Of a DNA stretch of 55,100 nucleotides, positions 8,294 through 45,185 are shown piece after piece (within the stretch, counting starts at the first letter, position 1; every line of letters starts with the position of its first letter). The stretch is from IMG/VR virus record IMGVR_UViG_3300030328_000649, positions 1 to 55,100 of that record. One strand, 5' to 3'. The notes beneath the pieces were generated by a model that was not told the DNA's origin, did no database searches, and saw only the letters and a list, made by a program, of their open reading frames with translations. Position numbers and translations under genes: made by a program. The DNA is from a virus (taxonomy: Duplodnaviria > Caudoviricetes).

Positions 8294-9060
8294 CAGAAAT
8301 AAATCCTATCGTCTGTCATGCTTTTTGGTTGAGGATTAATAAGATTAGATTTCATGTACTTCATACCTTTCTTATAATCATCTAATGCAAAAGCTGCTTG
8401 TTGTAAGTTTTCTTTAAACTGATGAACATAATAACGTGTTCTAGCTAATATAACAGGAGCATATTGGTCAGGAAGAATGATAGCATCACCGTGTGCTGAT
8501 AAAGCAGTTGGTTTAGCATAAGCATAAAAATGCACGTTATATACTTTATCTGGTATAGGGCTAAGTCCAAACTTACGATGATCTGGACTGCGTATAACAT
8601 AACGAGGTTCTCCATAGACTTGACCATCTGCATCATCTGAATTTTCTGCATCTCTTAAATATCTTTTCCAATCTGTTAAAGATATAAACTTTAAACCTTT
8701 AGAAACATAAGGAGCAGATTCTCCTGATACACTTATTGTTGTAATATAAAAATCATCCCAATCTATAGAAGCATAGTCTGTAGTTATACTAGAGCTTCCT
8801 GCTTTAAGCGTATACCATCTAGTTCCTGCTACACTTGCTACAGTTACGTTACCGTAAAAAGGATCTGTTTCTCCACTAGCTGCTGCTGCAAAAAAAGGTA
8901 GTTGAGGTTCTTCGTTAGCTATATCATTTAACGATCTATTAATTGATTCTTTAACAAAAGCTTGAATACCTACAGCACTTGAAAAGTTTGATGATGTAAG
9001 TTGAACTTCGTTAAGCTCTCTTAAAGTCTCATTAGCGAGTGTTAAATATGTTGTAGCCAT
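8293..9060 (-). CDS. Head-tail adaptor / tail tubular protein A-like
   Basis: Starts TYLTLANETLRELNE; contains GEPRY...LSPIPDKVY; lies downstream of the capsid gene. Confidence 0.7.
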   Translation of the reverse strand: MATTYLTLANETLRELNEVQLTSSNFSSAVGIQAFVKESINRSLNDIANEEPQLPFFAAAASGETDPFYGNVTVASVAGTRWYTLKAGSSSITTDYASIDWDDFYITTISVSGESAPYVSKGLKFISLTDWKRYLRDAENSDDADGQVYGEPRYVIRSPDHRKFGLSPIPDKVYNVHFYAYAKPTALSAHGDAIILPDQYAPVILARTRYYVHQFKENLQQAAFALDDYKKGMKYMKSNLINPQPKSMTDDRIYF

Positions 9061-9227
9061 TATTTACCCTTTTTCTTTTTACCAAAAATACGATCATAGT
9101 TATCGTTGTACTTCTGTTTTGCTTCACCAGAATATGCGCTACCTAACAATCCTAAGACTCTAGTGCTTTTAGGCTTACTAGAGCCATTTAGGATCATAGG
9201 ATTTTTATCGTTTCCTATCTGTGGCAT
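9060..9227 (-). CDS. Small hypothetical protein (55 aa)
   Basis: MPQIGNDKNPMILN...NYDRIFGKKKKGK fills the gap, with TAATG coupling to the next gene. Confidence 0.6.
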   Translation of the reverse strand: MPQIGNDKNPMILNGSSKPKSTRVLGLLGSAYSGEAKQKYNDNYDRIFGKKKKGK

Positions 9228-9229
9228 GT

Positions 9230-9820
9230 CTACTGATCAGGAGTAGAGCCGAGATGTAGAAACTCAACTAAATAAGTAACAGTTGTAGCTGCCGTAGCAA
9301 GGTCATTTGCTAGCGGCTTAAGACGAGCATATAGTGTACGAGCAGAAGCACTATACAACGTAGATGCTATAACAATAGCTTCTGAAGTTGCTGGTCCTCC
9401 TACAACACCTGCTGTAGTAGCTGTACTTACAAACTGGTTAGCTGCGTGTCCGTGTGAGTTTTGAATAATATACAAAGGCGCGTTTGCTGTCCAAGTTACT
9501 GCTGATCCGCCATCATCAAGAATAGCTTTCTCATCAATAATTTGACCACCACCTGCTGCAGTACCTAAATCAAAATCAACATCATCGCCTGAAGCTCCTG
9601 CTGTAACAATGTTACCTGCTGGAATAGCAATAAGGTTTCTGATAATAGTATCTGCTGGTTGTGTAAATGAAACATCGTAAGTAGCGTCAGCAGTAACTGC
9701 AATAGTTCCTGTTGTAGCTGAAGTCCACGAAGTACATATGTTGTCAGCAATTTCCTGAACATCTCCTGTTCTAGCTGAGTTGCGCCCTGTATCTCTTACT
9801 TTAAATACTGGGTTTGACAT
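9230..9820 (-). CDS. Putative virion protein (possible capsid decoration)
   Basis: 196 aa, A/T/G-rich, directly after the major capsid gene, good RBS. Confidence 0.55.
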   Translation of the reverse strand: MSNPVFKVRDTGRNSARTGDVQEIADNICTSWTSATTGTIAVTADATYDVSFTQPADTIIRNLIAIPAGNIVTAGASGDDVDFDLGTAAGGGQIIDEKAILDDGGSAVTWTANAPLYIIQNSHGHAANQFVSTATTAGVVGGPATSEAIVIASTLYSASARTLYARLKPLANDLATAATTVTYLVEFLHLGSTPDQ

Positions 9821-26690: not shown

Positions 26691-26957
26691 ATGACAGATG
26701 AAGAAGTACAGAAACCATACATCACTATTGATGGTGTGCAGATTTCGGTAGAAGATTTACCAGAAGAAGCGCAGGGTGTCTTTGGAAGGATTCAAAGATT
26801 AAATCAAAAGAAAGTTAATCTTACTCTGGACATTGAAGAAGTTCAGGCAAGTTTAAATTTCTTTACCAATAAGATTGTAGATATAATTAATCAAGAAGGA
26901 GAACAAAGCGAAACGGAAGTCGAAGAAGAAGAAGTTGTAACTAAATCAGAAAACTAA
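26691..26957 (+). CDS. Hypothetical acidic coiled-coil protein
   Basis: ORF between ssb and primase. Confidence 0.7.
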   Translation: MTDEEVQKPYITIDGVQISVEDLPEEAQGVFGRIQRLNQKKVNLTLDIEEVQASLNFFTNKIVDIINQEGEQSETEVEEEEVVTKSEN

Positions 26958-35690: not shown

Positions 35691-36134
35691 CTATTTAATC
35701 TTTATAGATACAGGTTTGTCTTCTTCTGGAACAATACGTTCCATTTTAATAGTCAACATTCCATCTTTAAGTTTAGCATCTTTGATTTCAATATCATCAG
35801 CAAGATTGAAACTTCTTTTAAAGTTTCTATTTGCTATACCTCTGTGAAGAGTTTGAAAATCAGCAGGATAGTTTTCATTATTTTTATCTATTGAAGAACC
35901 TTTAATTGTTAATGTATTTTTTTCTTGAACAACATCTAAGTCTTCTTTAGATATACCTGCAACTGCCATCTTAAGTTCATAAGTATTTTCTTTCTTGGTC
36001 ATGTTGTAAGGGGGATAACCTGAACCTCTGTCAATATTTTGCAAGCGATACATGTCGTTGAACAAAGCATCGAATCCAATAAATGAGTTTGAGAATATAG
36101 GTTTAGTGAGGTCTAATAAGAATTTATTAGTCAT
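35691..36134 (-). CDS. hsp20: Small heat-shock protein Hsp20 (IbpA-like)
   Basis: IGFD, YPPYN, AVAG, LHRGIANRNFKRSFNL, DGMLTI, VPEE, C-terminal IxI. Confidence 0.95.
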   Translation of the reverse strand: MTNKFLLDLTKPIFSNSFIGFDALFNDMYRLQNIDRGSGYPPYNMTKKENTYELKMAVAGISKEDLDVVQEKNTLTIKGSSIDKNNENYPADFQTLHRGIANRNFKRSFNLADDIEIKDAKLKDGMLTIKMERIVPEEDKPVSIKIK

Positions 36135-36201
36135 AGTATTTACTCCTTTTTATTAAGCAAGTGTTATTGTTATTATTGGCGCACATTATGCCACACCAAT
36201 A
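36135..36201 (-). promoter_or_regulatory. ROSE-like RNA thermometer in the hsp20 5' UTR
   Basis: A 5' hairpin, then ACUUGCU-loop-AGGAGU pairing over the SD with a bulged G. Confidence 0.6.
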
Positions 36202-36206
36202 CTTAT

Positions 36207-36235
36207 ATTATAAGGTCATATTTAAACTTTGTCAA
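36207..36235 (-). promoter_or_regulatory. Consensus sigma70 promoter of hsp20
   Basis: TTGACA-17 nt-TATAAT on the minus strand. Confidence 0.85.
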
Positions 36236-36243
36236 GTTTTTTT

Positions 36244-37377
36244 TTAACTTCCTTGACGTATTGTTATTGTAGAACTGCTTCCACCATTTGTAGTAATCTG
36301 ATTTACTTTACCTTCTTGTTCTATTGTTATGTTGTATGATCCTGCTTTATCTACTTTCATTTCTAACGTATCTTCTATAGCTCTTAGAAACTTTAAATGC
36401 GTATCAGTTATGAAGGTACTTATCTGTGTGTCACTATCGTATCCTACTGCTGTACCTTTTACTCCGTCAGCCGATAAAGATTTCTCAGCTTTACTAAGTT
36501 CATCAACCTCTTGTATCACATCAAGAAGATCTTCTAAAAAATTACCTGCTAGATAATCTATGTCTAGCTCTGTGTATTCTAATTCGTTATCTTTTAGTTC
36601 GTCTGTGTCAAGCTCGTTAAAGTCTAACAAGTCTACATCAAGTATGTTATCTGCTACTGTGTTACCTTCATCTGATTCTGATTCTTCTCTTTGAGGTGGA
36701 TTAACAATTAACATATTATCAATCATGTCTAAAGTTAAATCTAATATTACTGCTGGTGTTGGAGCTGTCTCAAAGTTATAAACAGTTGTAGCTTCATAAG
36801 GTCTATTTAATATAACTTGACCTAATGCAGTATTAACTGTTATTTCACCGCTTGCATCACCGAACTCGTCTGGTAAAAGTATTACCAAAGCTTCTCCAGT
36901 TTCTTTTACAGTTATTGTAAAGTCTGTACCTCTTATTCCAATAGTAGCAGCATGTGTCCTTACAGTAATGTTGTCGTTAGGTATACGTTTCTTTTTACTG
37001 GATATAAATCTACCAGTACCCTTAACAAAATTAAGAGCCATACTAGACTTACTTGGATTAGGATCAAACACAAACTCATCAATAATAACATTACTGTGTT
37101 CTGTTAAACGTATGGTAGTTTCATCCCTAAACGTAACACCCATCCTGCCTTTAGCAGTTTCAAGTTTATCCATAGCATTAAGAGAAAAGTCTATTGAACT
37201 TTCGTATGGTTTGTCTCTTACTACTCTGGTGTTTCCGTTTAGTTCTGTAATACTTCCTATATCAACATCCAACTGCTGTGCCTTGATCGTCCTGATTAAC
37301 GCATACTGTTCCGTTGTTTCCGTCAGACACAATGCGCAACCAATCATTATCCAAAGTAGACTGTTGATCCACCGCAA
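36244..37377 (-). CDS. Exported FecR-domain protein with a curlin-like C-terminus
   Basis: FecR-like D.L.T..G...F.D...L...S and TIGIRGTDF; hydrophobic N-terminus. Start uncertain (37347-37467). Confidence 0.75.
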   Translation of the reverse strand: MRWINSLLWIMIGCALCLTETTEQYALIRTIKAQQLDVDIGSITELNGNTRVVRDKPYESSIDFSLNAMDKLETAKGRMGVTFRDETTIRLTEHSNVIIDEFVFDPNPSKSSMALNFVKGTGRFISSKKKRIPNDNITVRTHAATIGIRGTDFTITVKETGEALVILLPDEFGDASGEITVNTALGQVILNRPYEATTVYNFETAPTPAVILDLTLDMIDNMLIVNPPQREESESDEGNTVADNILDVDLLDFNELDTDELKDNELEYTELDIDYLAGNFLEDLLDVIQEVDELSKAEKSLSADGVKGTAVGYDSDTQISTFITDTHLKFLRAIEDTLEMKVDKAGSYNITIEQEGKVNQITTNGGSSSTITIRQGS

Positions 37378-37969
37378 ACGACCTTGAGTTACCATCGTGT
37401 TCCAACTTGAAATAACCGCCTGCATATCCATCTCCATCATAGTTAACTGTGTTACTATCTCCATCAAGATCTATGTAGTTTGTAGCTGAGTCTACATCTA
37501 AATCAATATTAAGAGTATTTGAATCTCCTTGTACTATAGTATCTATGTCTGCTCCACTAGATAAACTGTTAGTCGCTAGATCAAGAGTAAATGTATTTGT
37601 ATTACCATCAACATCTACGTTTACATTTGCATTGTCTGCTGAGTAAGTATTAGTAGGATCAACTTGTATAGTAAAACTATTTGTATCTCCGTCAAAATCA
37701 AATATACCAGTAAAGGTATCTGAGTTTATATCACCAAGCATCTTGTTGTTGTTACCTATTTGATTTACATCTAGCGTCATTGTAGTACCATCAAGATCAA
37801 ATGGAGTCATAGATCCATGTGTTGATAATAGTCCACCTATTATGTTACCGCTTCCAAGTTGTTCTAAATCTATGTTAGCTGTCGCACCGACTTGATCTAC
37901 ATAGATCTCATTATCATCAGCTATTACGCTACATGATATAAGTAACAATAAGCTAATTAGTTTCTTCAT
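37262..37969 (-). CDS. Curlin-like (CsgA/CsgB-like) secreted repeat protein
   Basis: Sec signal peptide, then NEIYVDQVG, EQLGSGN, NQIGNNN, VQGDSN and repeated DGDxN units. Confidence 0.7.
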   Translation of the reverse strand: MKKLISLLLLISCSVIADDNEIYVDQVGATANIDLEQLGSGNIIGGLLSTHGSMTPFDLDGTTMTLDVNQIGNNNKMLGDINSDTFTGIFDFDGDTNSFTIQVDPTNTYSADNANVNVDVDGNTNTFTLDLATNSLSSGADIDTIVQGDSNTLNIDLDVDSATNYIDLDGDSNTVNYDGDGYAGGYFKLEHDGNSRSFAVDQQSTLDNDWLRIVSDGNNGTVCVNQDDQGTAVGC

Positions 37970-38774
37970 ATTCCCAATACCCCCTGATTATTCCTGTTTT
38001 AATTATTTCTAACACACCTTCTTCTATTGCCTGTTGAAGAGCTATTGAACTTGATTCATTTTCTGATGCTCCTCCTTCTATCTCTACAAGCTCTGTTCCA
38101 TTAGAAACAAACCGAAACAAATCTTGAGAAAGTCCTACTGATATAACACTCTTACTAACTAACACTTCTACTAATACTTCTCCTGTTGAAACAGAAACTA
38201 GCCTAAGTGAAATAGTTATTAAGTCTTCTCTGTACTCTTTACTTGAACCTATTCCCAAGTATCTAGCACCGATACCACCACTTCTAATATTAGAATCTAT
38301 TGAAATCACAGCACCCTGTACCAGTAATCCTGCCAGTAAAAGAGGTTTGACGCTGTTGTCCTCTTCAAAAGATTCCCTTGTACTGCGTATAAGTTGTCTT
38401 TCTTTAGTTAAACTGTCAAGACCTACACGTTCTGCTACTTGGAAAAACTTTCCATTAGCTGCGTGCTTTAAAGCTCTAATAAGAAAAGCTTCTGGTGCTT
38501 GTGTAATAGCTGTAGAAAATAAAGCAAACTGTCCGTTGCTTCTACGTTGTCCTGTTTGATCTTTAAAACTATTAGGATAAATAGCTATAACTGGTTTTCT
38601 TTTTGCAGCAGGTATGCTCTTTAATTCTTCTGATTGTAAATCTAATACAGAAGCTTTTTCAATAATAATATAAGGAAGACCACCTTCTTCTAATAACGAA
38701 CTGTATCTAGGCGCACAACTAGAAAGTAAAACTACCGATAGGAACAGTAATGCTAGTCGTACCTCCAGTTTCAT
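37953..38774 (-). CDS. csgG: Curli secretion channel lipoprotein CsgG
   Basis: Lipobox LLSSC; IAIY..FKDQTGQR, FSTAITQ, ERVGLDSLTKERQLIR, GGIGARYLGIG, LRLVSVSTGEVL. Confidence 0.9.
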   Translation of the reverse strand: MKLEVRLALLFLSVVLLSSCAPRYSSLLEEGGLPYIIIEKASVLDLQSEELKSIPAAKRKPVIAIYPNSFKDQTGQRRSNGQFALFSTAITQAPEAFLIRALKHAANGKFFQVAERVGLDSLTKERQLIRSTRESFEEDNSVKPLLLAGLLVQGAVISIDSNIRSGGIGARYLGIGSSKEYREDLITISLRLVSVSTGEVLVEVLVSKSVISVGLSQDLFRFVSNGTELVEIEGGASENESSSIALQQAIEEGVLEIIKTGIIRGYWEYEETN

Positions 38775-39222
38775 CTGTAATCGTAAGCGTGATAAGCTCA
38801 TTTTCAACTTTGTATTCAATAGTGTTTCCCTCTAGCTCAAGTGAACCTGATGTTTGTGGTGTCTCTCCGAACAGTTGTTCTACCATTTGTCTCGATAGCT
38901 GTGCATAGATTCTGCTTTCTAGGTTTCTTATAAACCTTGCAAGTGTAGTGTTGTCTGCTTCTCTAGCTAACTCATCTTGATATGCTTCTATCTCTTCTTT
39001 AATATCTTTAACTCTTGTAGACTCTTGGTTTTCTATAGTAAGATAGTGACTTGATGTATTTATACCAGAGAAACTAGGACTTTTAAACTTGTAAAGTATT
39101 TCGTCAGCTTTTAATGCGTCACTAAAAAAAATTAACATAAACAAAAAAATAAAATTAAATACAAACAATAAATTAATAAGTGTATGTGCTGATATATTTT
39201 TAATCTTTTCTTTGATCTTCAC
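38719..39222 (-). CDS. csgF: Curli assembly protein CsgF-like
   Basis: Signal ending ALKA, mature N-terminus EILYKFKSPSFSG, RFIRNLESRIYAQLS, C-terminal ITD..G.T.I.VP; directly upstream of csgG. Confidence 0.8.
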   Translation of the reverse strand: MKIKEKIKNISAHTLINLLFVFNFIFLFMLIFFSDALKADEILYKFKSPSFSGINTSSHYLTIENQESTRVKDIKEEIEAYQDELAREADNTTLARFIRNLESRIYAQLSRQMVEQLFGETPQTSGSLELEGNTIEYKVENELITLTITDETGGTTSITVPIGSFTF

Positions 39223-39550
39223 GGTCTGCTTTACTCACTTTATCTATTTCAATTAAGTTAGGAATACCTAACAAAGTTTTAAGAAGAACATCTTGTCTGA
39301 TGGTTTGATTATCTAAAGATCTAACCCGATCAATTAAAGCTACTATTATCCCATATTGAGAATCTAGTTTAGTGCTAAGTCTTTCTTCCATAGCATTAAG
39401 ACTAGCATCTACCTTTTCATCAACAACATCTATCTTCTTCTCCATACCGTCAATGATTTTATTTATAAGCTTCCAAATAAAGAAACCCAATCCTAGCGCA
39501 CTAGCAATCGGGAATCCTACTTGATTAATAAAGTCTATTGCTTCTTTCAT
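39200..39550 (-). CDS. Membrane protein with a coiled coil (possible holin or curli accessory protein)
   Basis: INQVGFPIASALGLGFFIW TM segment. Confidence 0.6.
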   Translation of the reverse strand: MKEAIDFINQVGFPIASALGLGFFIWKLINKIIDGMEKKIDVVDEKVDASLNAMEERLSTKLDSQYGIIVALIDRVRSLDNQTIRQDVLLKTLLGIPNLIEIDKVSKADREDQRKD

Positions 39551-39786
39551 TTACCTACTTTTTTCATAGCCTTTTTATGTGCGGTAGTAAACGTACTGCC
39601 TTCACGCATAAGTCTACGCATCATAGCCATGTGTTTAGATGTATGATGTACCGAGTGTTTCTTTAATGTTTCTTTTTGACGATCAGTAAGAGCTTTCTTT
39701 TTACTAACTTTCTTACCTTTCTTATATGTAGTTCTTTTACTAGGTCTGCCTACTTTAGAACCGTATGTACCTTTCCCTTGTGGCAT
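39547..39786 (-). CDS. Small basic protein
   Basis: MPQGKGTYGSKVGRP; K/H-rich. Confidence 0.65.
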   Translation of the reverse strand: MPQGKGTYGSKVGRPSKRTTYKKGKKVSKKKALTDRQKETLKKHSVHHTSKHMAMMRRLMREGSTFTTAHKKAMKKVGK

Positions 39787-39788
39787 GG

Positions 39789-39923
39789 CTACATCCTTTG
39801 TTTATAATCTTTGATTTGTTTCATCTCTTCTCTTAATTTTATTTGTTGCTTTCTAAAATTAAATTTTTCTTTATTTCTAACTTCTTGTCTTCTAGCTTGA
39901 TTTCTAAATCCGCCTTTTCTCAT
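39789..39923 (-). CDS. Small basic protein (44 aa)
   Basis: MRKGGFRNQARRQEVRNKEK...; fills the gap with an ATGA overlap. Confidence 0.5.
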   Translation of the reverse strand: MRKGGFRNQARRQEVRNKEKFNFRKQQIKLREEMKQIKDYKQRM

Positions 39924-40132
39924 AACATTAAATCCTCTAATGCTTCTAATTTATCTTTAGCTTGTGCAAGTTTATCTAGTTGTTCATCCATAACTTCTAC
40001 AATGTCTGCGTGTTCTCCGACACCTACACTATTTTTAAAGTATACCGATAAGTTTGCTTCGGCTTTAGCTATTTCACCTTTGTATACAGCTCTTAAAGCT
40101 TTGTATTGAGGTGTATGATTTATATTAGTCAT
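39920..40132 (-). CDS. Hypothetical phage protein
   Basis: YKGEIAKAEANL...VGVGEHADIVE helical hairpin. Confidence 0.7.
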   Translation of the reverse strand: MTNINHTPQYKALRAVYKGEIAKAEANLSVYFKNSVGVGEHADIVEVMDEQLDKLAQAKDKLEALEDLML

Positions 40133-40619
40133 TATCTTTATCCTTTGAATTACTTGCTCCGAAATAGAAGCTGATTACAGCACTTGCCAAACCACCAAGA
40201 TAACCAAGTACTAAGTTAATTAATGCTTCTGAGTTCTGCTCTGGAGGTTGAAGTGTTACTAAGAATATATAACCCATGAAGCCACCAACAACAGCTATAC
40301 CCATGATACGAGATGTCCAATCTTTAGAGAACTTTCCTCTTGCATCTTGTATGTCTGCAGTTTCTAGTGCATATAGATCAACATCTAGTTCCTTCATCCT
40401 AACTTCAAAATCTTTGTCAATCTTTTTAAGTTCTGCAAGTTGTTCAGGTGTCGCAGCTTGTACTGCTGCTTCTATTTTCTTAGGTGTTGGTTCACAACCA
40501 AGAGCATCAGCTACCATATTTGCAGCCATCGAACCCATTGGTCCACCTAGAGCTGTGCCTATAGTAGGAGCTACAGCACCTATAATATTTTTCACATTTT
40601 TAAGTAAGTTTAGTTTCAT
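40125..40619 (-). CDS. Putative holin
   Basis: APTIGTALGGP N-terminus, two TM helices, FYFGAS end; near the lysozyme gene. Confidence 0.6.
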   Translation of the reverse strand: MKLNLLKNVKNIIGAVAPTIGTALGGPMGSMAANMVADALGCEPTPKKIEAAVQAATPEQLAELKKIDKDFEVRMKELDVDLYALETADIQDARGKFSKDWTSRIMGIAVVGGFMGYIFLVTLQPPEQNSEALINLVLGYLGGLASAVISFYFGASNSKDKDND

Positions 40620-40875
40620 TTTCTTTCTCTTTTAGTTCCTCGTTGTTAAAGCGTATGCTTTCATTTCCTAGAATATCTTCTACTGATTGCATCGCAAGTT
40701 CTAGTGGCATTTCTGGCACACCTTTTAAGTGCGCATTTAACAGTTCTTCATATACTTTTCTAAACTCTTCTCGTTTAATCCAAGCAAGATCTGTTTTAGA
40801 ACGCAGTTTACAGTCTATCCGATAAGCTCTGTCGAGATCATCTTCAAGATACATTATCAAAATATCTTCATCCAT
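40600..40875 (-). CDS. Hypothetical protein
   Basis: Coupled ORF in the lysis region. Confidence 0.65.
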   Translation of the reverse strand: MDEDILIMYLEDDLDRAYRIDCKLRSKTDLAWIKREEFRKVYEELLNAHLKGVPEMPLELAMQSVEDILGNESIRFNNEELKEKENETKLT

Positions 40876-41278
40876 TGATTATCATTTGTTCTAGTCTATC
40901 TGCCCTGTTACCTACTTGTTTTGCCCAACGACTATCAAGCATTTCCTTACCTGCTGTCTCATAGTCACCTTCTTCCATCGCACCTAAAAACTTTTTAAAG
41001 TTTAAAAGTTTTGTCAAACCTAAATTAAATATCATATTAATAATAGCTCGTTGTCTAACGTCTGTTAAATCTGCAAACCATTTGAATACTCTGGTTGCTT
41101 CTTCTTCACAAATTGTTATATCGTTGGCAAGAAGATAGTCAGACTCATCCATAGTGATACCACGCTCTTCTATGTTTCTACCCACACCCAGCGTTAAAAA
41201 TCCTGCCGAGCATTTGTAAGGTCGTAGTTCTACACCTTCGTCACGTTTAAGCTCTTCTATTAGTTTCTCTTTGTTCAT
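40868..41278 (-). CDS. Lysozyme/endolysin (GH24, T4-lysozyme-like)
   Basis: DEG...YKC..G.LT.GVG, NMIFNLG, EMLDSRWAKQVGNRA. Confidence 0.9.
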   Translation of the reverse strand: MNKEKLIEELKRDEGVELRPYKCSAGFLTLGVGRNIEERGITMDESDYLLANDITICEEEATRVFKWFADLTDVRQRAIINMIFNLGLTKLLNFKKFLGAMEEGDYETAGKEMLDSRWAKQVGNRADRLEQMIING

Positions 41279-44200
41279 TTATAACCTCGTTTCGTTTTTC
41301 TAATATAGATATAAGACTAGGTCTAGTTGTTTCAAAAAATGATTCTCCTAAATATTTACTACTTCTATCTTCTGGATTATCTTTAACATTAGAAACTGGA
41401 GGACCTCCTAGTTTAAGTTCTTGTCTACCTCTTCTACCTCGCATTGGTCTCTTTATTCTATCTTGTGTTCTTGCAGCTTCTTGAATAGTTAAACCTAATC
41501 TATCTCTGTCTAAAAATTCTTTACCTATAGGAATATCTCTGCGTGTAACATCTTTAGCAAAAGGAATTGTTAATTCTGCTGCACCTACTGCTGCACTTCT
41601 AGGTCCTTCTGATTTAGTAATTACTTCAAACGAATCATTTATAAATGCTAAAGCAGGATAAATATTTTCAAGAGGTGCAACATTATAACCTTTAGTAGTT
41701 TGTTCATATATTCTTACTGCTTTTTCAACATGCCACGGAAGAACTTGACCTGAAAAGATAGCAGAATCTGAGCCTTCTTTTAACGCACTTATAACATCAT
41801 TTACTTTATTAAACTTTAATAGTTGATTATCTACATTTAAATCTACATCTATTTGAGTAGCTTCTCTATACTTTTCTGAAGGATTTAAAGCAACGTGAAG
41901 TTGACGTACTGCTGCATACAAAGGCATACTAGCAATCATTGCTGCAAGCAATTTACCATCACTATTTTCAATCCTAGAAAGTAAAGCACTTGTTTGTGTT
42001 CCTTTCGCTTGCGCCCACGATAAAAAAGTTCCTGCAAATTTTAATAATGGATTAGCACTTTGAGCAAACAATCTTCTGTTTCCTATTTGAGGTATTAACG
42101 CATCTCTATCTGCTGCTCTTAAACCTGCTCTATCTAACAGTCTTTTAGCTGTAGCATTTCCATAAGCTTCATCTATCGTTTTAAATCTACTTAAAAACAA
42201 CGCTCCTTTTTCACTCATACCTCCTGCATTTGTAATAGCACTTACATCGCTTGAAGAAAGATTCTTAAAACTTCCTCTTTTACCTAACTTTTTACTTAAA
42301 GAAAAAACTTTATATACACCTGCATCAAAAGCAAACTCTCTTGCAAAACGTGTAACTCTAGAAAGACCTATTGCAGTAAAAAATTTCTGTTGATAATTCA
42401 TTAGTTTTTCTTGATAAGCAGACTCAGGTAAAGTTGTCATGTTTGTATTATAAAGTTCTTTTTCTAAATCTCCTTTGTATTTTCTTTGTTTAATAAACCC
42501 TATTGCTTCAAAATCTTTTTGATTTTTAAAAGCTTGTTGGGCTAAACTACTAGAAGGTTTAATTTGATTTTTACCTAAAACAGCTCCTCCTGCAGAAGTT
42601 GCTTTAATTTGTCTTAACGCAGAACTAGCTGCAGCTCGTACACCACTATTTTGAATAACTTGAATTAAGTCTCCTATACTTGGAACTACAACTTTAGTAA
42701 GTTTTGTAGTAGCTAACAAAGTTTGTAAACTTAAAGCAAGACTTCTTGCGCCAACTCCTGTATTAGGATTATAATCAAGTACTTTAAAATGAGAATTTAT
42801 AGTTCTTGCTATATCTTTTAAGTCTGCTTTGTACAAATCATCTAAACTTTTATTTTCTGATAAAGTTTTAGCACCTTTTGGTAAATATTTAGAATAGTAA
42901 TCTCTTAATTGTTTTCTAACAGCTATAAGACCTTGTCCTCTAGAACCAAAAACTCTAGAAAATTCAGCATAAGGAATAACATCATTGTAAAGTTTTAAAG
43001 TTGTTTCAATAGGATCTTGAACAAATAAATCTTTAGCTATTGCTCTTGCTTCTGGATCATATAGTTTTCTTTGAGTATCTAAAAACCTAGAAGATTTTAT
43101 TAAGGGAGGATTTTTTTCTACAGATTTAGAAAAAGGATTTTGAACTCCATCTTGTAACATTTTTGAATCTACAATTTCAGCTCTTTTTATTTCATCAGCT
43201 CCTTTTAAATAAGCAGATGCTTTTGTTTTAGCCCAACTATCTACAGTTTTTTTGGTTATTTTTTTACCTTTCCACATAAACTCTCCCCTAACTTTAGGTT
43301 TAAGTCTATTGTTTTCCCATTGTTTTATAAAAGCTTGTGTTAAAATTTTCTTATTAGAAGGAACATTATATCCTTTCGCTGACACATTACGATACAGTTG
43401 TGTTAACCCATAAACTTCTTCTTCTTTTAAAAGTATTCCTGCATTTTTAATATACTGTTTAAATTCTTCTTGTAATAAAAAATATTTATTACTAGCTTCT
43501 AAAGCTTTTGTATTAGTAAGATCTCCTTCTTTTAAAAAAGTATACTCACTCTTTTTTTTCATACCTTTATTTTGTATAAGTCTACCTGTAGCAGCAAGAT
43601 CTTCAGGACTTAACAAATCTAAAATGTCACTTAATTTATTTGTAAAAAGAGCAGTATTAGCATCAGTTAATTCTTCAACACTTTCTTGTCTAACAGTACC
43701 TACTTTTAATTTTGAACCAAAGCTTCTAAGCATGTCTAAACCAAACTTCTGCATAACAGGATTTGCTGCTTCAAAATATCCTGTATTAGAAGTAGCTATT
43801 AGTTTCCCTACTCGTTCTCTTAAAGTTCGTGTATATGCGTTTACTTCTTCTTCTTTAAGAATACTTGTCATGTCTTTTAAAACATTTCTACTAAGCTTAT
43901 CGCTGTTAAAGTTTTTTATTCGTTTGTGAAAAAACCCTGCTACAAAACCTGCTGTTGCATATTCTAATATGTTGTTTTCTCTTTCAACATTACGAGGAGA
44001 ATCTTCTTCTAAATATATTCCTGTTATTCCACCTGCAGTTCCATAAGCTACAGGTCTAACAAGCTCTTGAACAAAAGCGCGATATAAATTTTTTCCTTTA
44101 GATCCATTCTTACTTGTCCATTCTTCATCACTAAACAATCCTTTATTTAAAGCTTTTTTCCAAGATGCAAAACCAATAATTCCTCTATCTTCAGAAAGTT

Positions 44201-45185
44201 TAATTTTTTCTAACTCTAAAATTTCTTTTCGTTTTTCTTTAATTTGTTCTTCTACTTTTTTTACAGCCGAAGATTTACCTAAAGGTTTTTCTTTTACTTT
44301 AGTTTTAGTTTTAGTTTTTTTAGCAGTAGCAGCTTTTTTCTCTGCCCTAGCTTTTCTAGCTTTGTCAATTCTTGTAGTTGTTTGTTTTAATAAAATATTT
44401 AACTCTTCTTCTTCTCGATACAATACTCCTAATCTTTTAAGATTTGAAGTTGCACTATTTATCATATCTGGATTTTCTAGTTCTACTTCTTCTGATATTT
44501 CTTCAAGTGTTTTTGCAGTTTTAGCATCAGGTTTAACAGGATCAGGAGTTTTCTTAGATAAAAACTTTCTAGAAATAGCGTCAGAACCTGCTCCTGCAAT
44601 AGAACCTACTCCAAAAGCAAGAGCAGTATTAGTAGCATTTGTTTCTCCGTAAAGAGTCATGTCTCTTAAAGCAGTTTCTCCTGCAGCAACTGTTCCTGAA
44701 AATAAAGCAGTAGCTCCAATTCCTCCTTTAGCAACTCTAGTCCACGGCATAAATAGAGTAACTGGATCAGTAAAACCTGCGCCTACTCTTCCTAATAAAA
44801 CAGTAGCATCTTCTTCTCTATCTTTAAAAATAGCATACTCAGGATTTTCTTCATAGATTTCTTGCATCCTTTTTTCTTCTTTACGTTGAGCTATTGATTT
44901 AACATCTTCTCCTGTTTTATAACTTTCATAATAAGAACCTGCTGTAGATGCTAAACTTGAAAAAATATGAGGTTCTGCTTCATATCCATATCCTAGTTTA
45001 TCTGAAGTTGTAACCCATTCAGGAATTTCTGAGCTTGTATCGTCTTTAAAAGTAAAACTACCGAAAGGAGCATCTTCGTTATTATTAGTATTTAAATTAA
45101 AAGTTTCAATATTATTGTTGTTTAAAGAAGCATCGTCTTTAAAAGTAAAACTACCGAAAGGAGCATCTTGATTTACATTTTTCAT
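41247..45185 (-). CDS. Large putative internal virion (ejection) protein
   Basis: 1312 aa with A/G-rich hydrophobic stretches; lies in the cluster of large late ORFs. Confidence 0.6.
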   Translation of the reverse strand: MKNVNQDAPFGSFTFKDDASLNNNNIETFNLNTNNNEDAPFGSFTFKDDTSSEIPEWVTTSDKLGYGYEAEPHIFSSLASTAGSYYESYKTGEDVKSIAQRKEEKRMQEIYEENPEYAIFKDREEDATVLLGRVGAGFTDPVTLFMPWTRVAKGGIGATALFSGTVAAGETALRDMTLYGETNATNTALAFGVGSIAGAGSDAISRKFLSKKTPDPVKPDAKTAKTLEEISEEVELENPDMINSATSNLKRLGVLYREEEELNILLKQTTTRIDKARKARAEKKAATAKKTKTKTKVKEKPLGKSSAVKKVEEQIKEKRKEILELEKIKLSEDRGIIGFASWKKALNKGLFSDEEWTSKNGSKGKNLYRAFVQELVRPVAYGTAGGITGIYLEEDSPRNVERENNILEYATAGFVAGFFHKRIKNFNSDKLSRNVLKDMTSILKEEEVNAYTRTLRERVGKLIATSNTGYFEAANPVMQKFGLDMLRSFGSKLKVGTVRQESVEELTDANTALFTNKLSDILDLLSPEDLAATGRLIQNKGMKKKSEYTFLKEGDLTNTKALEASNKYFLLQEEFKQYIKNAGILLKEEEVYGLTQLYRNVSAKGYNVPSNKKILTQAFIKQWENNRLKPKVRGEFMWKGKKITKKTVDSWAKTKASAYLKGADEIKRAEIVDSKMLQDGVQNPFSKSVEKNPPLIKSSRFLDTQRKLYDPEARAIAKDLFVQDPIETTLKLYNDVIPYAEFSRVFGSRGQGLIAVRKQLRDYYSKYLPKGAKTLSENKSLDDLYKADLKDIARTINSHFKVLDYNPNTGVGARSLALSLQTLLATTKLTKVVVPSIGDLIQVIQNSGVRAAASSALRQIKATSAGGAVLGKNQIKPSSSLAQQAFKNQKDFEAIGFIKQRKYKGDLEKELYNTNMTTLPESAYQEKLMNYQQKFFTAIGLSRVTRFAREFAFDAGVYKVFSLSKKLGKRGSFKNLSSSDVSAITNAGGMSEKGALFLSRFKTIDEAYGNATAKRLLDRAGLRAADRDALIPQIGNRRLFAQSANPLLKFAGTFLSWAQAKGTQTSALLSRIENSDGKLLAAMIASMPLYAAVRQLHVALNPSEKYREATQIDVDLNVDNQLLKFNKVNDVISALKEGSDSAIFSGQVLPWHVEKAVRIYEQTTKGYNVAPLENIYPALAFINDSFEVITKSEGPRSAAVGAAELTIPFAKDVTRRDIPIGKEFLDRDRLGLTIQEAARTQDRIKRPMRGRRGRQELKLGGPPVSNVKDNPEDRSSKYLGESFFETTRPSLISILEKRNEVINEQRETNRRA
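45039..45168. repeat. Tandem duplication encoding DAPFGSFTFKDD twice
   Basis: ATCGTCTTTAAAAGTAAAACTACCGAAAGGAGCATCTT occurs twice. Confidence 0.85.

Follow-up and report, generated by a model that had tools for sequence, protein, structure and literature searches.

Why does a podovirus carry genes of the curli secretion pathway, and do these genes encode a device that works? The question is raised by a stretch of DNA of 55,100 bases, the whole of the virus record IMGVR_UViG_3300030328_000649 (here called the window; completeness of the record by CheckV 100%), in which a first-pass annotation had recognised csgF-like, csgG, curlin-repeat-type and FecR-domain genes lying tightly overlapping after the lysis genes. 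All four were found where that annotation had placed them, on the minus strand, to which the coordinates of the cassette refer, and a gene for a small membrane protein of 116 amino acids (aa) is a fifth member of the cassette, beyond the four named before. We conclude that the cassette is real, intact and conserved, and that the window phage is a further carrier of a system already described: the cassette is probably the short form of the type VIII (curli-like) secretion module of pelagiphages, borne here by an HTVC103P-type podovirus and working as a channel that exports a repeat protein. The five genes, in the order of the gene string, are:

39200..39550, minus strand: 116-aa small membrane protein, first gene of the cassette (open reading frame and phrog_18771)
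38719..39222, minus strand: CsgF-like protein, 167 aa from a GTG start (Pfam PF10614)
37953..38819, minus strand: CsgG lipoprotein (Pfam PF03783)
37262..37969, minus strand: 235-aa acidic curlin-like repeat protein, predicted to be exported (remote homology, all-beta model)
36244..37467, minus strand: FecR-domain protein, longest open reading frame 407 aa (Pfam PF04773)

The reading frames of all five genes are intact, and each overlaps the next: the gene of the 116-aa protein and csgF by 23 nucleotides (nt), csgF and csgG by 56-101 nt, csgG and the curlin-like gene by 17 nt, and the curlin-like and FecR-domain genes by 86-206 nt (the ranges reflect the choice of start codon). PHROGs includes viral families for CsgF-like, CsgG-like and FecR-like proteins.

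Which components of a curli system are encoded here? The CsgG of the window matched PF03783 with 156 bits (cut-off 20.8; E 1.1e-45) and the solved structures of E. coli CsgG with E 3.5e-40, the motif LLSSC aligning to LLSGC, including the cysteine of the lipobox. It scored above the Pfam cut-off but below that of the NCBIfam equivalog for enterobacterial CsgG (144.6 versus 505 bits), and is therefore, as far as profile comparisons tell, a member of the family without an ortholog-level match to enterobacterial CsgG. The longest open reading frame of csgG begins at TTG 38819, and ATG 38774 gives a lipoprotein signal of 20 residues (MKLEVRLALLFLSVVLLSSC) that ends in LLSSC; ATG 38774 is the likely start, because a relative has an in-frame stop in the upstream extension and a conserved methionine matches this position. 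LLSSC was also found in the 14 listed viral loci that were checked for the start of CsgG, and across 14/14 aligned phage CsgGs neither the lipobox LLSSC nor the loop F-A-L-F-S-T-A varies. The invariance of this loop among the phage versions argues that the constriction loop of phage CsgG is constrained, yet different from that of E. coli. Membership in HfaB, the CsgG relative of the Caulobacter holdfast anchor (HfaA/HfaB/HfaD), was rejected, the HfaB model matching the window protein weakly and below its cut-off (E 2.1e-5; 23.9 bits versus 300).

The CsgF-like protein matched PF10614 with 70.1 bits (cut-off 25.8; E 2.6e-19) over profile positions 4-132 of 132, and phrog_35372 with E 6.9e-42. 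It was far below the cut-off of the NCBIfam CsgF equivalog (13.7 versus 171 bits), and phmmer against the PDB found no CsgF chain, so that it is by the Pfam model only that the protein is named a putative CsgF. Its N-terminus is hydrophobic and signal-like, with a Kyte-Doolittle maximum of 2.88 near residue 24.

The candidate substrate is more divergent. The 235-aa protein has a hydrophobic, signal-like N-terminus, and its repeats start directly after the signal peptide. A check by hidden Markov models (HMMs) against CsgG, CsgF and curlin had been proposed beforehand: it bore out the first two, both above cut-off, and left the 235-aa protein below the Curlin_rpt threshold. This protein had no match in Pfam at E<=0.1; among 23 close relatives Curlin_rpt was weakly present in five (best E 0.027) and DUF3060 in 17 (best E 3.3e-4). 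A clustered protein collection contained 2,430 relatives at E<=0.001, and none of the 120 relatives listed carried a Pfam domain, the few with names being called 'hypothetical protein' or, twice, 'plastocyanin'. When the family profile was run against 1.84 billion representatives, 457 were retrieved at E<=0.001. Curlin_rpt matched at E<=0.01 in 11/35 full-length representatives (34 retrieved in this search plus the window protein), the only other families among them being DUF3060 (2) and DUF4847 (1), and two further distant relatives scored above the Curlin_rpt gathering score. Alignment of the family profile by hhalign to E. coli CsgA gave 80.9% (E 1.3e-5, 90 columns, in the repeat register) and to CsgB 35%. 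The AlphaFold2 (AF2) model of the 235-aa protein (23-row alignment; pLDDT 84.2, pTM 0.81) shows an N-terminal signal helix followed by 16 strands in an all-beta fold, and its top Foldseek matches, all weak, were with few exceptions beta-helix or solenoid proteins and included no curlin. Because of the hhalign alignment to CsgA, the occurrence of Curlin_rpt in 11 of the 35 representatives and the confident all-beta model, we regard the 235-aa protein as a divergent curlin-type repeat protein and a putative fibre subunit or substrate, which on its own falls outside Pfam's curlin rule.

The FecR-domain protein matched PF04773 with 45.3 bits (cut-off 24; E 1.2e-11) at residues 101-194 of the longest open reading frame, and phrog_37870 with E 3e-63; all of its 30 nearest Atlas clusters (30/30) are viral FecR-domain proteins. 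A signal-like N-terminus is followed by the FecR domain, which an acidic linker joins to a small beta domain at the C-terminus. PF04773 was the sole Pfam family found, and no anti-sigma or transmembrane part was detected in the protein; in the homologues (HTVC008M, Melnitz and viral loci) the signal-like segment lies 20-40 residues ahead of the conserved domain, without space for an anti-sigma domain. Since the signal-like segment abuts the domain and no anti-sigma or transmembrane part is present, the sequence points to an exported protein without an anti-sigma part rather than an iron regulator. The start is likely ATG 37395 or ATG 37347: in the window phage the N-terminus is hydrophobic from the former (Kyte-Doolittle 2.53) and poorly so from the latter (1.41), at which several relatives start. 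In the window's own clade, too, the FecR signal peptide that begins at the usual methionine is poorly hydrophobic, and the upstream methionine (37395) is better. The AF2 model of the FecR-domain protein (15-row alignment; pLDDT 42, pTM 0.34) was unusable. With these four proteins, the statement of the first-pass annotation that the phage carries the pore, the anchor and apparent substrates held: CsgG and CsgF by Pfam, and the curlin-like and FecR-domain proteins as exported candidates.

The long overlap of the curlin-like and FecR-domain genes (region 37262-37467) has the FecR signal peptide read out of frame across the conserved C-terminus of the curlin-like protein. It is kept across the podovirus versions (loci L003-L082), in contrast to the 0-23 nt of the myophage versions. 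Among cellular genomes (one per species), FecR-domain relatives were confined to a single locus, L085, in which a 51%-identical copy terminates a 10-kb contig from a Parvibaculum metagenome-assembled genome (MAG); L085 is probably a phage fragment binned with that MAG.

The 116-aa protein consists of a single N-terminal hydrophobic helix and a charged helical part. Among PHROGs it matched phrog_18771 (E 2.3e-14), whose function is unknown; no Pfam match exceeded the cut-off, and the Atlas clusters nearest to the protein are all viral and without a Pfam family. Homologues lie upstream of csgF in 49/80 viral loci (tblastn, E<=1e-5), and also in HTVC008M and Melnitz, with 29% identity. By its position it is probably the protein labelled 'HK' (histidine kinase) in PMC9599517. 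The length of 116 aa is too small for a kinase core; no kinase-related Pfam or NCBIfam match was found in the protein at E<=0.1, nor any kinase match in its HTVC008M and Melnitz counterparts at E<=0.01, so the 'histidine kinase' label does not appear to be borne out for it.

Is the cassette maintained, or is it a relic? Viral contigs were scanned with the CsgG of the window; 113 stretches matched, 111 were confirmed and the best 80 were kept (66-98% identity), and it is to these 80 loci that the counts refer. The order CsgF-CsgG-curlin-like-FecR is complete in 67 of them, 13 are cut by the end of the contig, and none is inconsistent, so that the survey of synteny suggested by the first-pass annotation returned the four-gene order in 67/67 complete loci. 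Flanking genes of the window type (e.g., ribonucleotide reductase, endolysin) are common to 36 loci, and four longer records with a portal 84-87% identical to that of the window also carry the cassette. The ratio of nonsynonymous to synonymous substitution rates (dN/dS) of all five genes was 0.02-0.33 (up to 16 loci, with dS often saturated): it was 0.04-0.13 for the 235-aa gene and 0.02-0.12 for the 116-aa gene where dS was unsaturated, and in the least diverged pair it was 0.33 for CsgF, 0.26 for CsgG, 0.057 for the curlin-like protein and 0.13 for the FecR-domain protein. These values suggest that the cassette genes are intact and under purifying selection; degenerate genes, which the first-pass annotation had named as an outcome that would speak against it, were not encountered. 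The stretch is also present in marine metagenomes from several studies.

The same data bear on the idea that the short form is a non-functional remnant of a long signalling and secretion module, carried along with the neighbouring lysis genes. This idea takes its appeal from what the window lacks (CHASE2, the cyclase domains and a second curlin gene) and from the evident mobility of the module among lineages. Against it stand the five intact frames with dN/dS well below 1 in each gene, the order kept in every complete locus, the recurrence of the cassette in four or more other records whose portal resembles that of the window (84-87%) and its presence in marine metagenomes of several studies; we consider it very improbable.

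To which phage group does the carrier belong, and how much of this was already in print? Capsid, portal and PolA of the window are closest to the Pelagibacter phages HTVC115P, HTVC103P and HTVC104P (60%, 62% and 50% aa identity, respectively); second-nearest are HMO-2011 and its relatives for the structural genes and T7-like phages for the polymerase. A mix of HMO-2011-like structural and T7-like replication genes defines the HTVC103P-type group in the accessible part of bioRxiv 10.1101/2019.12.14.876532, and by sequence the window phage is an uncultivated HTVC103P-type podovirus with an HMO-2011-like structural and a T7-like replication module. An HTVC023P-type identity was rejected, as the HTVC023P capsid had no match and the HTVC023P PolA matched with only 31% identity over 190 residues. 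Cultured phages searched at the DNA level with positions 36000-40000 gave no match. A SAR11 host, judged from the phage relatives alone, is a reasonable guess.

The first-pass annotation had implied that in phages little beyond csgF and csgG of some marine myophages was on record. This does not hold: the cassette is annotated in full in the myophages HTVC008M (KC465899) and Melnitz (MZ577097), in the order CsgF, CsgG, curlin-associated protein, FecR-domain or hypothetical protein and adenylate cyclase, and the accessible text of PMC9599517 (Wittmers et al. 2022) describes a type VIII secretion system (T8SS), HK-CsgF-CsgG-CsgA/B-FecR(-CsgA/B-AC), in nine HTVC023P-type podovirus genomes. According to that text, the second CsgA/B and AC are frequent but not universal, and CsgC, CsgD and CsgE are absent from the phage T8SS; it argues for a transfer of the T8SS between myoviruses and podoviruses, reports that it was detected in metatranscriptomes and at every one of the 65 GOV2.0 stations, and reads FecR as an 'iron-dependent regulator'. 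Superinfection defence, aggregation and import are discussed there as roles, so the shielding, aggregation and uptake hypotheses of the first-pass annotation had also been raised before. In the literature searched (most subscription journals and supplements lay outside the search), we found no report of curli genes in HTVC103P-type, HTVC115P or HMO-2011-type phages.

Compared with the HTVC023P-type module as described in the accessible part of PMC9599517, the window has the same order (small 'HK' gene, CsgF, CsgG, curlin-repeat, FecR) on another backbone, and it lies outside the PolA recruitment rule given there, because its PolA is only 31% identical over 190 residues to that of HTVC023P. The HTVC023P-type module is often long, whereas the window has a short form, without a second curlin gene or cyclase and with Hsp20 directly after FecR. 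The position also differs: the cassette of the window follows the endolysin and holin-like genes, and that of the HTVC023P-type locus L052 precedes spanins and endolysin. The myophages HTVC008M and Melnitz share the order CsgF-CsgG-curlin-repeat-FecR and have the weak 116-aa homologue upstream, but their CsgG is only 43-45% identical to that of the window, their cluster lies among replication genes, and it is of the long form, FecR being followed by a protein with PA14 and Curlin_rpt and then by a cyclase with CHASE2 and Guanylate_cyc. With csgBAC/csgDEFG of E. coli the window shares the family of the CsgG lipoprotein channel, the CsgF family and a predicted exported Q-x-G-x-x-N repeat protein in the register of CsgA. 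It differs in lacking CsgE, CsgC and a separate CsgB (CsgD was not searched for), in having its genes in one string on one strand, in the addition of an exported FecR-domain protein, and in the constriction residues, a pairwise unalignable CsgF and a 235-aa subunit with a pI of 4.05 versus 5.0 and two conserved cysteines.

Counterparts of the FecR-domain protein exist in bacteria as well. Bacteria are known to encode an exported FecR-domain protein in a gene pair with a CHASE2 sensor (PMC5192318, accessible part), and in the Burkholderia 'BiofilmReg' operon presented there a FecR-domain protein with a signal peptide and without an anti-sigma part stands beside a CHASE2 sensor, as in the myophage module. 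The bacterial pairs of that source have a histidine kinase partner and a LysM domain, whereas the FecR-domain protein of the window stands alone: CHASE2 and Guanylate_cyc were absent from the window record, and the protein would therefore work without that partner.

How did the module come to sit on such different backbones? In loci L052, L064 and L065 (records of 53-65 kb) the capsid (69-70%) and the polymerase are HTVC023P-like, yet their CsgG shares 72-74% identity with that of the window. Two records of ~34 kb (~33.9 kb; L032/G005 and L035/G013; CheckV 97%) carry the cassette as well; of these, G005 has no HTVC023P-like capsid or polymerase, and in this lineage a 711-aa protein had no match among cultured phages and the exonuclease distant matches only. 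The cassette of the ~34-kb lineage lies between structural-looking genes and an exonuclease with a Sak4-like annealing protein, and the lineage is without a window-like portal. In a CsgG tree of 66 rows (17 rows were dropped as partial matches or for containing a stop or X), a long branch parts the two myophages from all podovirus versions, the 34-kb lineage is nested within the window-like clade (support 99/90), and the window-like loci need at least 4-5 changes of flank type. Because the tree requires several such changes, the module has moved repeatedly between backbones, involving at least three podovirus lineages. Divergence is uneven in loci L031 and L046 relative to the window, the 116-aa gene being 98-99% and CsgF, CsgG and the curlin-like protein 67-81% identical, which suggests recombination within the module. 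New here are the HTVC103P-type backbone, the repeated transfers among at least three podovirus lineages, and the reading of the FecR-domain protein as an exported protein, not an iron regulator.

Does the cassette serve lysis? The flanking genes that bear on this question are:

40125..41278, minus strand: lysis block, upstream of the cassette in the same gene string
40868-41278, minus strand: endolysin (Phage_lysozyme E 7.8e-14; phrog_7 endolysin E 1e-19)
40125-40619, minus strand: 164-aa holin-like membrane protein (homologues adjoin lysozymes, one of them annotated holin)
within 40125..41278, minus strand: 91-aa protein, a neighbour in the lysis region
35691-36134 (context 35691..36235), minus strand: Hsp20 (HSP20 E 3.6e-16), the downstream limit of the cassette

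In HTVC115P (L089, 18343-24538) Hsp20 directly follows a 1,893-aa protein at the same junction and the cassette is absent; relative to it, the window (35691-45185) has an extra block at the Hsp20 junction, made up of lysis genes and cassette. In the window a 1,312-aa protein stands at this junction, and a separate endolysin, the genes of the lysis region and the cassette come after it. At 39547-39923 (minus strand), after the holin-like gene and before the cassette, two very basic, Lys/Arg-rich small proteins (79 aa and 44 aa) are encoded; the larger one matches phrog_31838 (unknown function), and relatives occur in a few loci. Between the FecR stop and the Hsp20 start, at 36235-36207 on the minus strand, lies a perfect sigma-70 consensus (TTGACA-17-TATAAT, 12/12), and Hsp20 may therefore be transcribed separately from the late gene string, by the host RNA polymerase; promoter-like sites across the region number 21 versus 23.3 in shuffles, i.e., they are not in excess.

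A role in lysis would have the CsgG/CsgF channel, perhaps with the small membrane protein, aid the disruption of the outer membrane or the timing of lysis in place of spanins, the repeat and FecR-domain proteins being secondary; lysis timing has been put forward for a pore in Melnitz (PMC9004378, accessible part). The endolysin and holin-like genes directly precede the cassette of the window, and among the 23/80 loci with at least 3.5 kb upstream and at least 4.5 kb downstream of csgG, a relative of the window endolysin or of the 164-aa protein was found upstream in 13/23, downstream in 4/23 and not at all in 6/23, so that module and lysis genes are linked in at least three different arrangements. 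The named Atlas clusters nearest to the 116-aa protein include Mu-like releasin and holin families (scores 0.87, to be taken as leads only). That no spanin had been recognised by the first-pass annotation agrees with our search of the window with two Rz-like PHROG families (no dedicated spanin search was made), which gave no match to phrog_812 and no credible match overall: phrog_739 had one 14-bit match at 26787-26948, and the control of the same search rang in 14/14 control genomes.

These observations have to be set against locus L052 (HTVC023P-type, record G001), in which two Rz-like spanin genes (phrog_739 E 2.2e-12, phrog_812 E 7.3e-15) lie at 8590-9385, directly between FecR and the endolysin: cassette, two spanins and endolysin occur together. 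In the podoviruses the module is genuinely associated with lysis genes, but spanins are found beside it there. In the myophages, moreover, the module lies among replication genes, adjoining those for a single-stranded DNA-binding protein and thyX, and in HTVC115P, the cultured phage nearest to the window, no lysis gene is annotated at the Hsp20 junction. The CsgG channel is ~1 nm wide and by itself does not break the outer membrane. A role of the pore only would also leave unexplained why the repeat protein is present in every complete locus and strongly constrained, being the most constrained gene of the least diverged pair (dN/dS 0.057). The spanin-substitute idea of the first-pass annotation is thereby weakened, and we regard a lysis accessory as unlikely.

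A second proposal starts from the missing gate. HMMs of CsgE, CsgC and CsgH had no match anywhere in the 55.1-kb record, in line with the first-pass annotation, which had recognised neither CsgE nor CsgC, and without CsgE the CsgG pore might stay open, so that small nutrients or cofactors would enter the periplasm, to be bound or sensed by the FecR-domain protein. Import is raised as an idea in the accessible text of PMC9599517, and PMC9004378 cites Zaragoza-Solas et al. for it. It does not account for the fact that the repeat protein and CsgF are always present and strongly constrained, and the FecR-domain protein is devoid of the cytoplasmic anti-sigma part required for Fec-type signalling. 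Porins already pass small solutes across outer membranes, which also counts against an import channel, and we give this proposal only a slight chance.

If the cassette is instead an export device, it might work as follows. Its five genes close a string of structural and lysis genes without gaps, and late, coupled translation is probable. CsgG, CsgF, the repeat protein and the FecR-domain protein have signal-like N-termini and would cross the inner membrane by the Sec pathway of the host. By homology, CsgG would be lipidated at the conserved cysteine of LLSSC and form the channel in the outer membrane, and CsgF would cap its constriction. The acidic 235-aa protein, a putative beta-solenoid, would be the secreted substrate, forming a fibre or coat on the surface, and the FecR-domain protein would be an exported accessory; the CHASE2 adenylate/guanylate cyclase that is its partner in the long module is absent from the window phage. 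The benefit to the phage may lie in surface remodelling, superinfection shielding or aggregation.

Several points weigh against this export device. For the phage versions the channel, the export and the fibres are predicted by analogy with curli. Curlin_rpt scored 14.2 bits on the 235-aa protein (gathering score 20.7), touching residues 18-42, i.e., the first repeat, and nothing else in the 55-kb record; Foldseek of the model against the PDB gave no match at E<=0.001, and the profile of its close relatives found no curlin among PDB sequences at E<=10, only chance matches to antibody and kinetochore proteins. With 35 Asp among its 235 residues and an isoelectric point (pI) of 4.05, versus 5.0 for E. 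coli CsgA, the protein is much the more acidic of the two, and its family has two invariant C-terminal cysteines; amyloid behaviour is therefore an assumption. BLASTP of the phage CsgF against E. coli CsgF gave no alignment, and opposite Y51, N55 and F56, which we take to be the constriction residues of E. coli CsgG, the window protein has N, L and F, the phenylalanine alone being kept. That the host has no T8SS of its own is a statement of PMC9599517 on Pelagibacter, made in its accessible part, and the authors of Melnitz saw no clumping in cytograms or electron micrographs (PMC9004378, accessible part). Evidence of transcription is weak, the RNA-labelled runs giving short contigs that cover csgG, csgF, hsp20 and the 91-aa gene only in part; these runs may contain DNA, and two of them with near-identical contigs are possibly one data set.

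Could the FecR-domain protein be more than an accessory? Its C-terminus has a conserved curlin-like strand-turn-strand pattern (hydrophobic-x-hydrophobic-x-Q-x-G-x-x-N ... hydrophobic-T-I-x-Q), kept from the podovirus to the myophage versions. When the FecR family was aligned to the curlin-like family, hhalign picked this motif, at 2.1% and 0.45% over 14 columns, which is not significant, and when a complex was predicted between the mature repeat protein and the last 79 residues of the FecR-domain protein, the score was 0.02 (mark 0.32), which gives no answer either way. On this pattern one could build a bolder version, in which a mobile, self-contained module, often moving with lysis genes, has the FecR-domain protein as second cargo, fibre nucleator or anchor, and a cell devoid of a T8SS would show a FecR-type binding domain on phage fibres shortly before lysis; the C-terminal curlin-like unit could then tether the FecR domain to the acidic solenoid fibre, in the role that CsgB has for CsgA. 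We think this version rather improbable, and the plain reading, a short pelagiphage T8SS module that exports its repeat protein, is the one we retain.

What does the cassette mean for these phages? The labels 'iron regulator FecR' and 'histidine kinase' are unsupported for the proteins of the window, which changes the experiments that make sense, and the cultured carriers HTVC008M and Melnitz are the place to test function. The recurrent proximity to lysis genes, together with the coexistence with spanins in one lineage, narrows the hypotheses on lysis. Beyond T4-like myophages and HTVC023P-type podoviruses, the module occurs in HTVC103P-type phages and in a ~34-kb lineage without a cultured relative, and the CsgG tree requires several transfers between these backbones; selection therefore acts on the module itself. 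Curli-type secretion genes are an unusual auxiliary function in a phage, and they would provide a complete export device of the outer membrane to a host that, according to the literature, has none.

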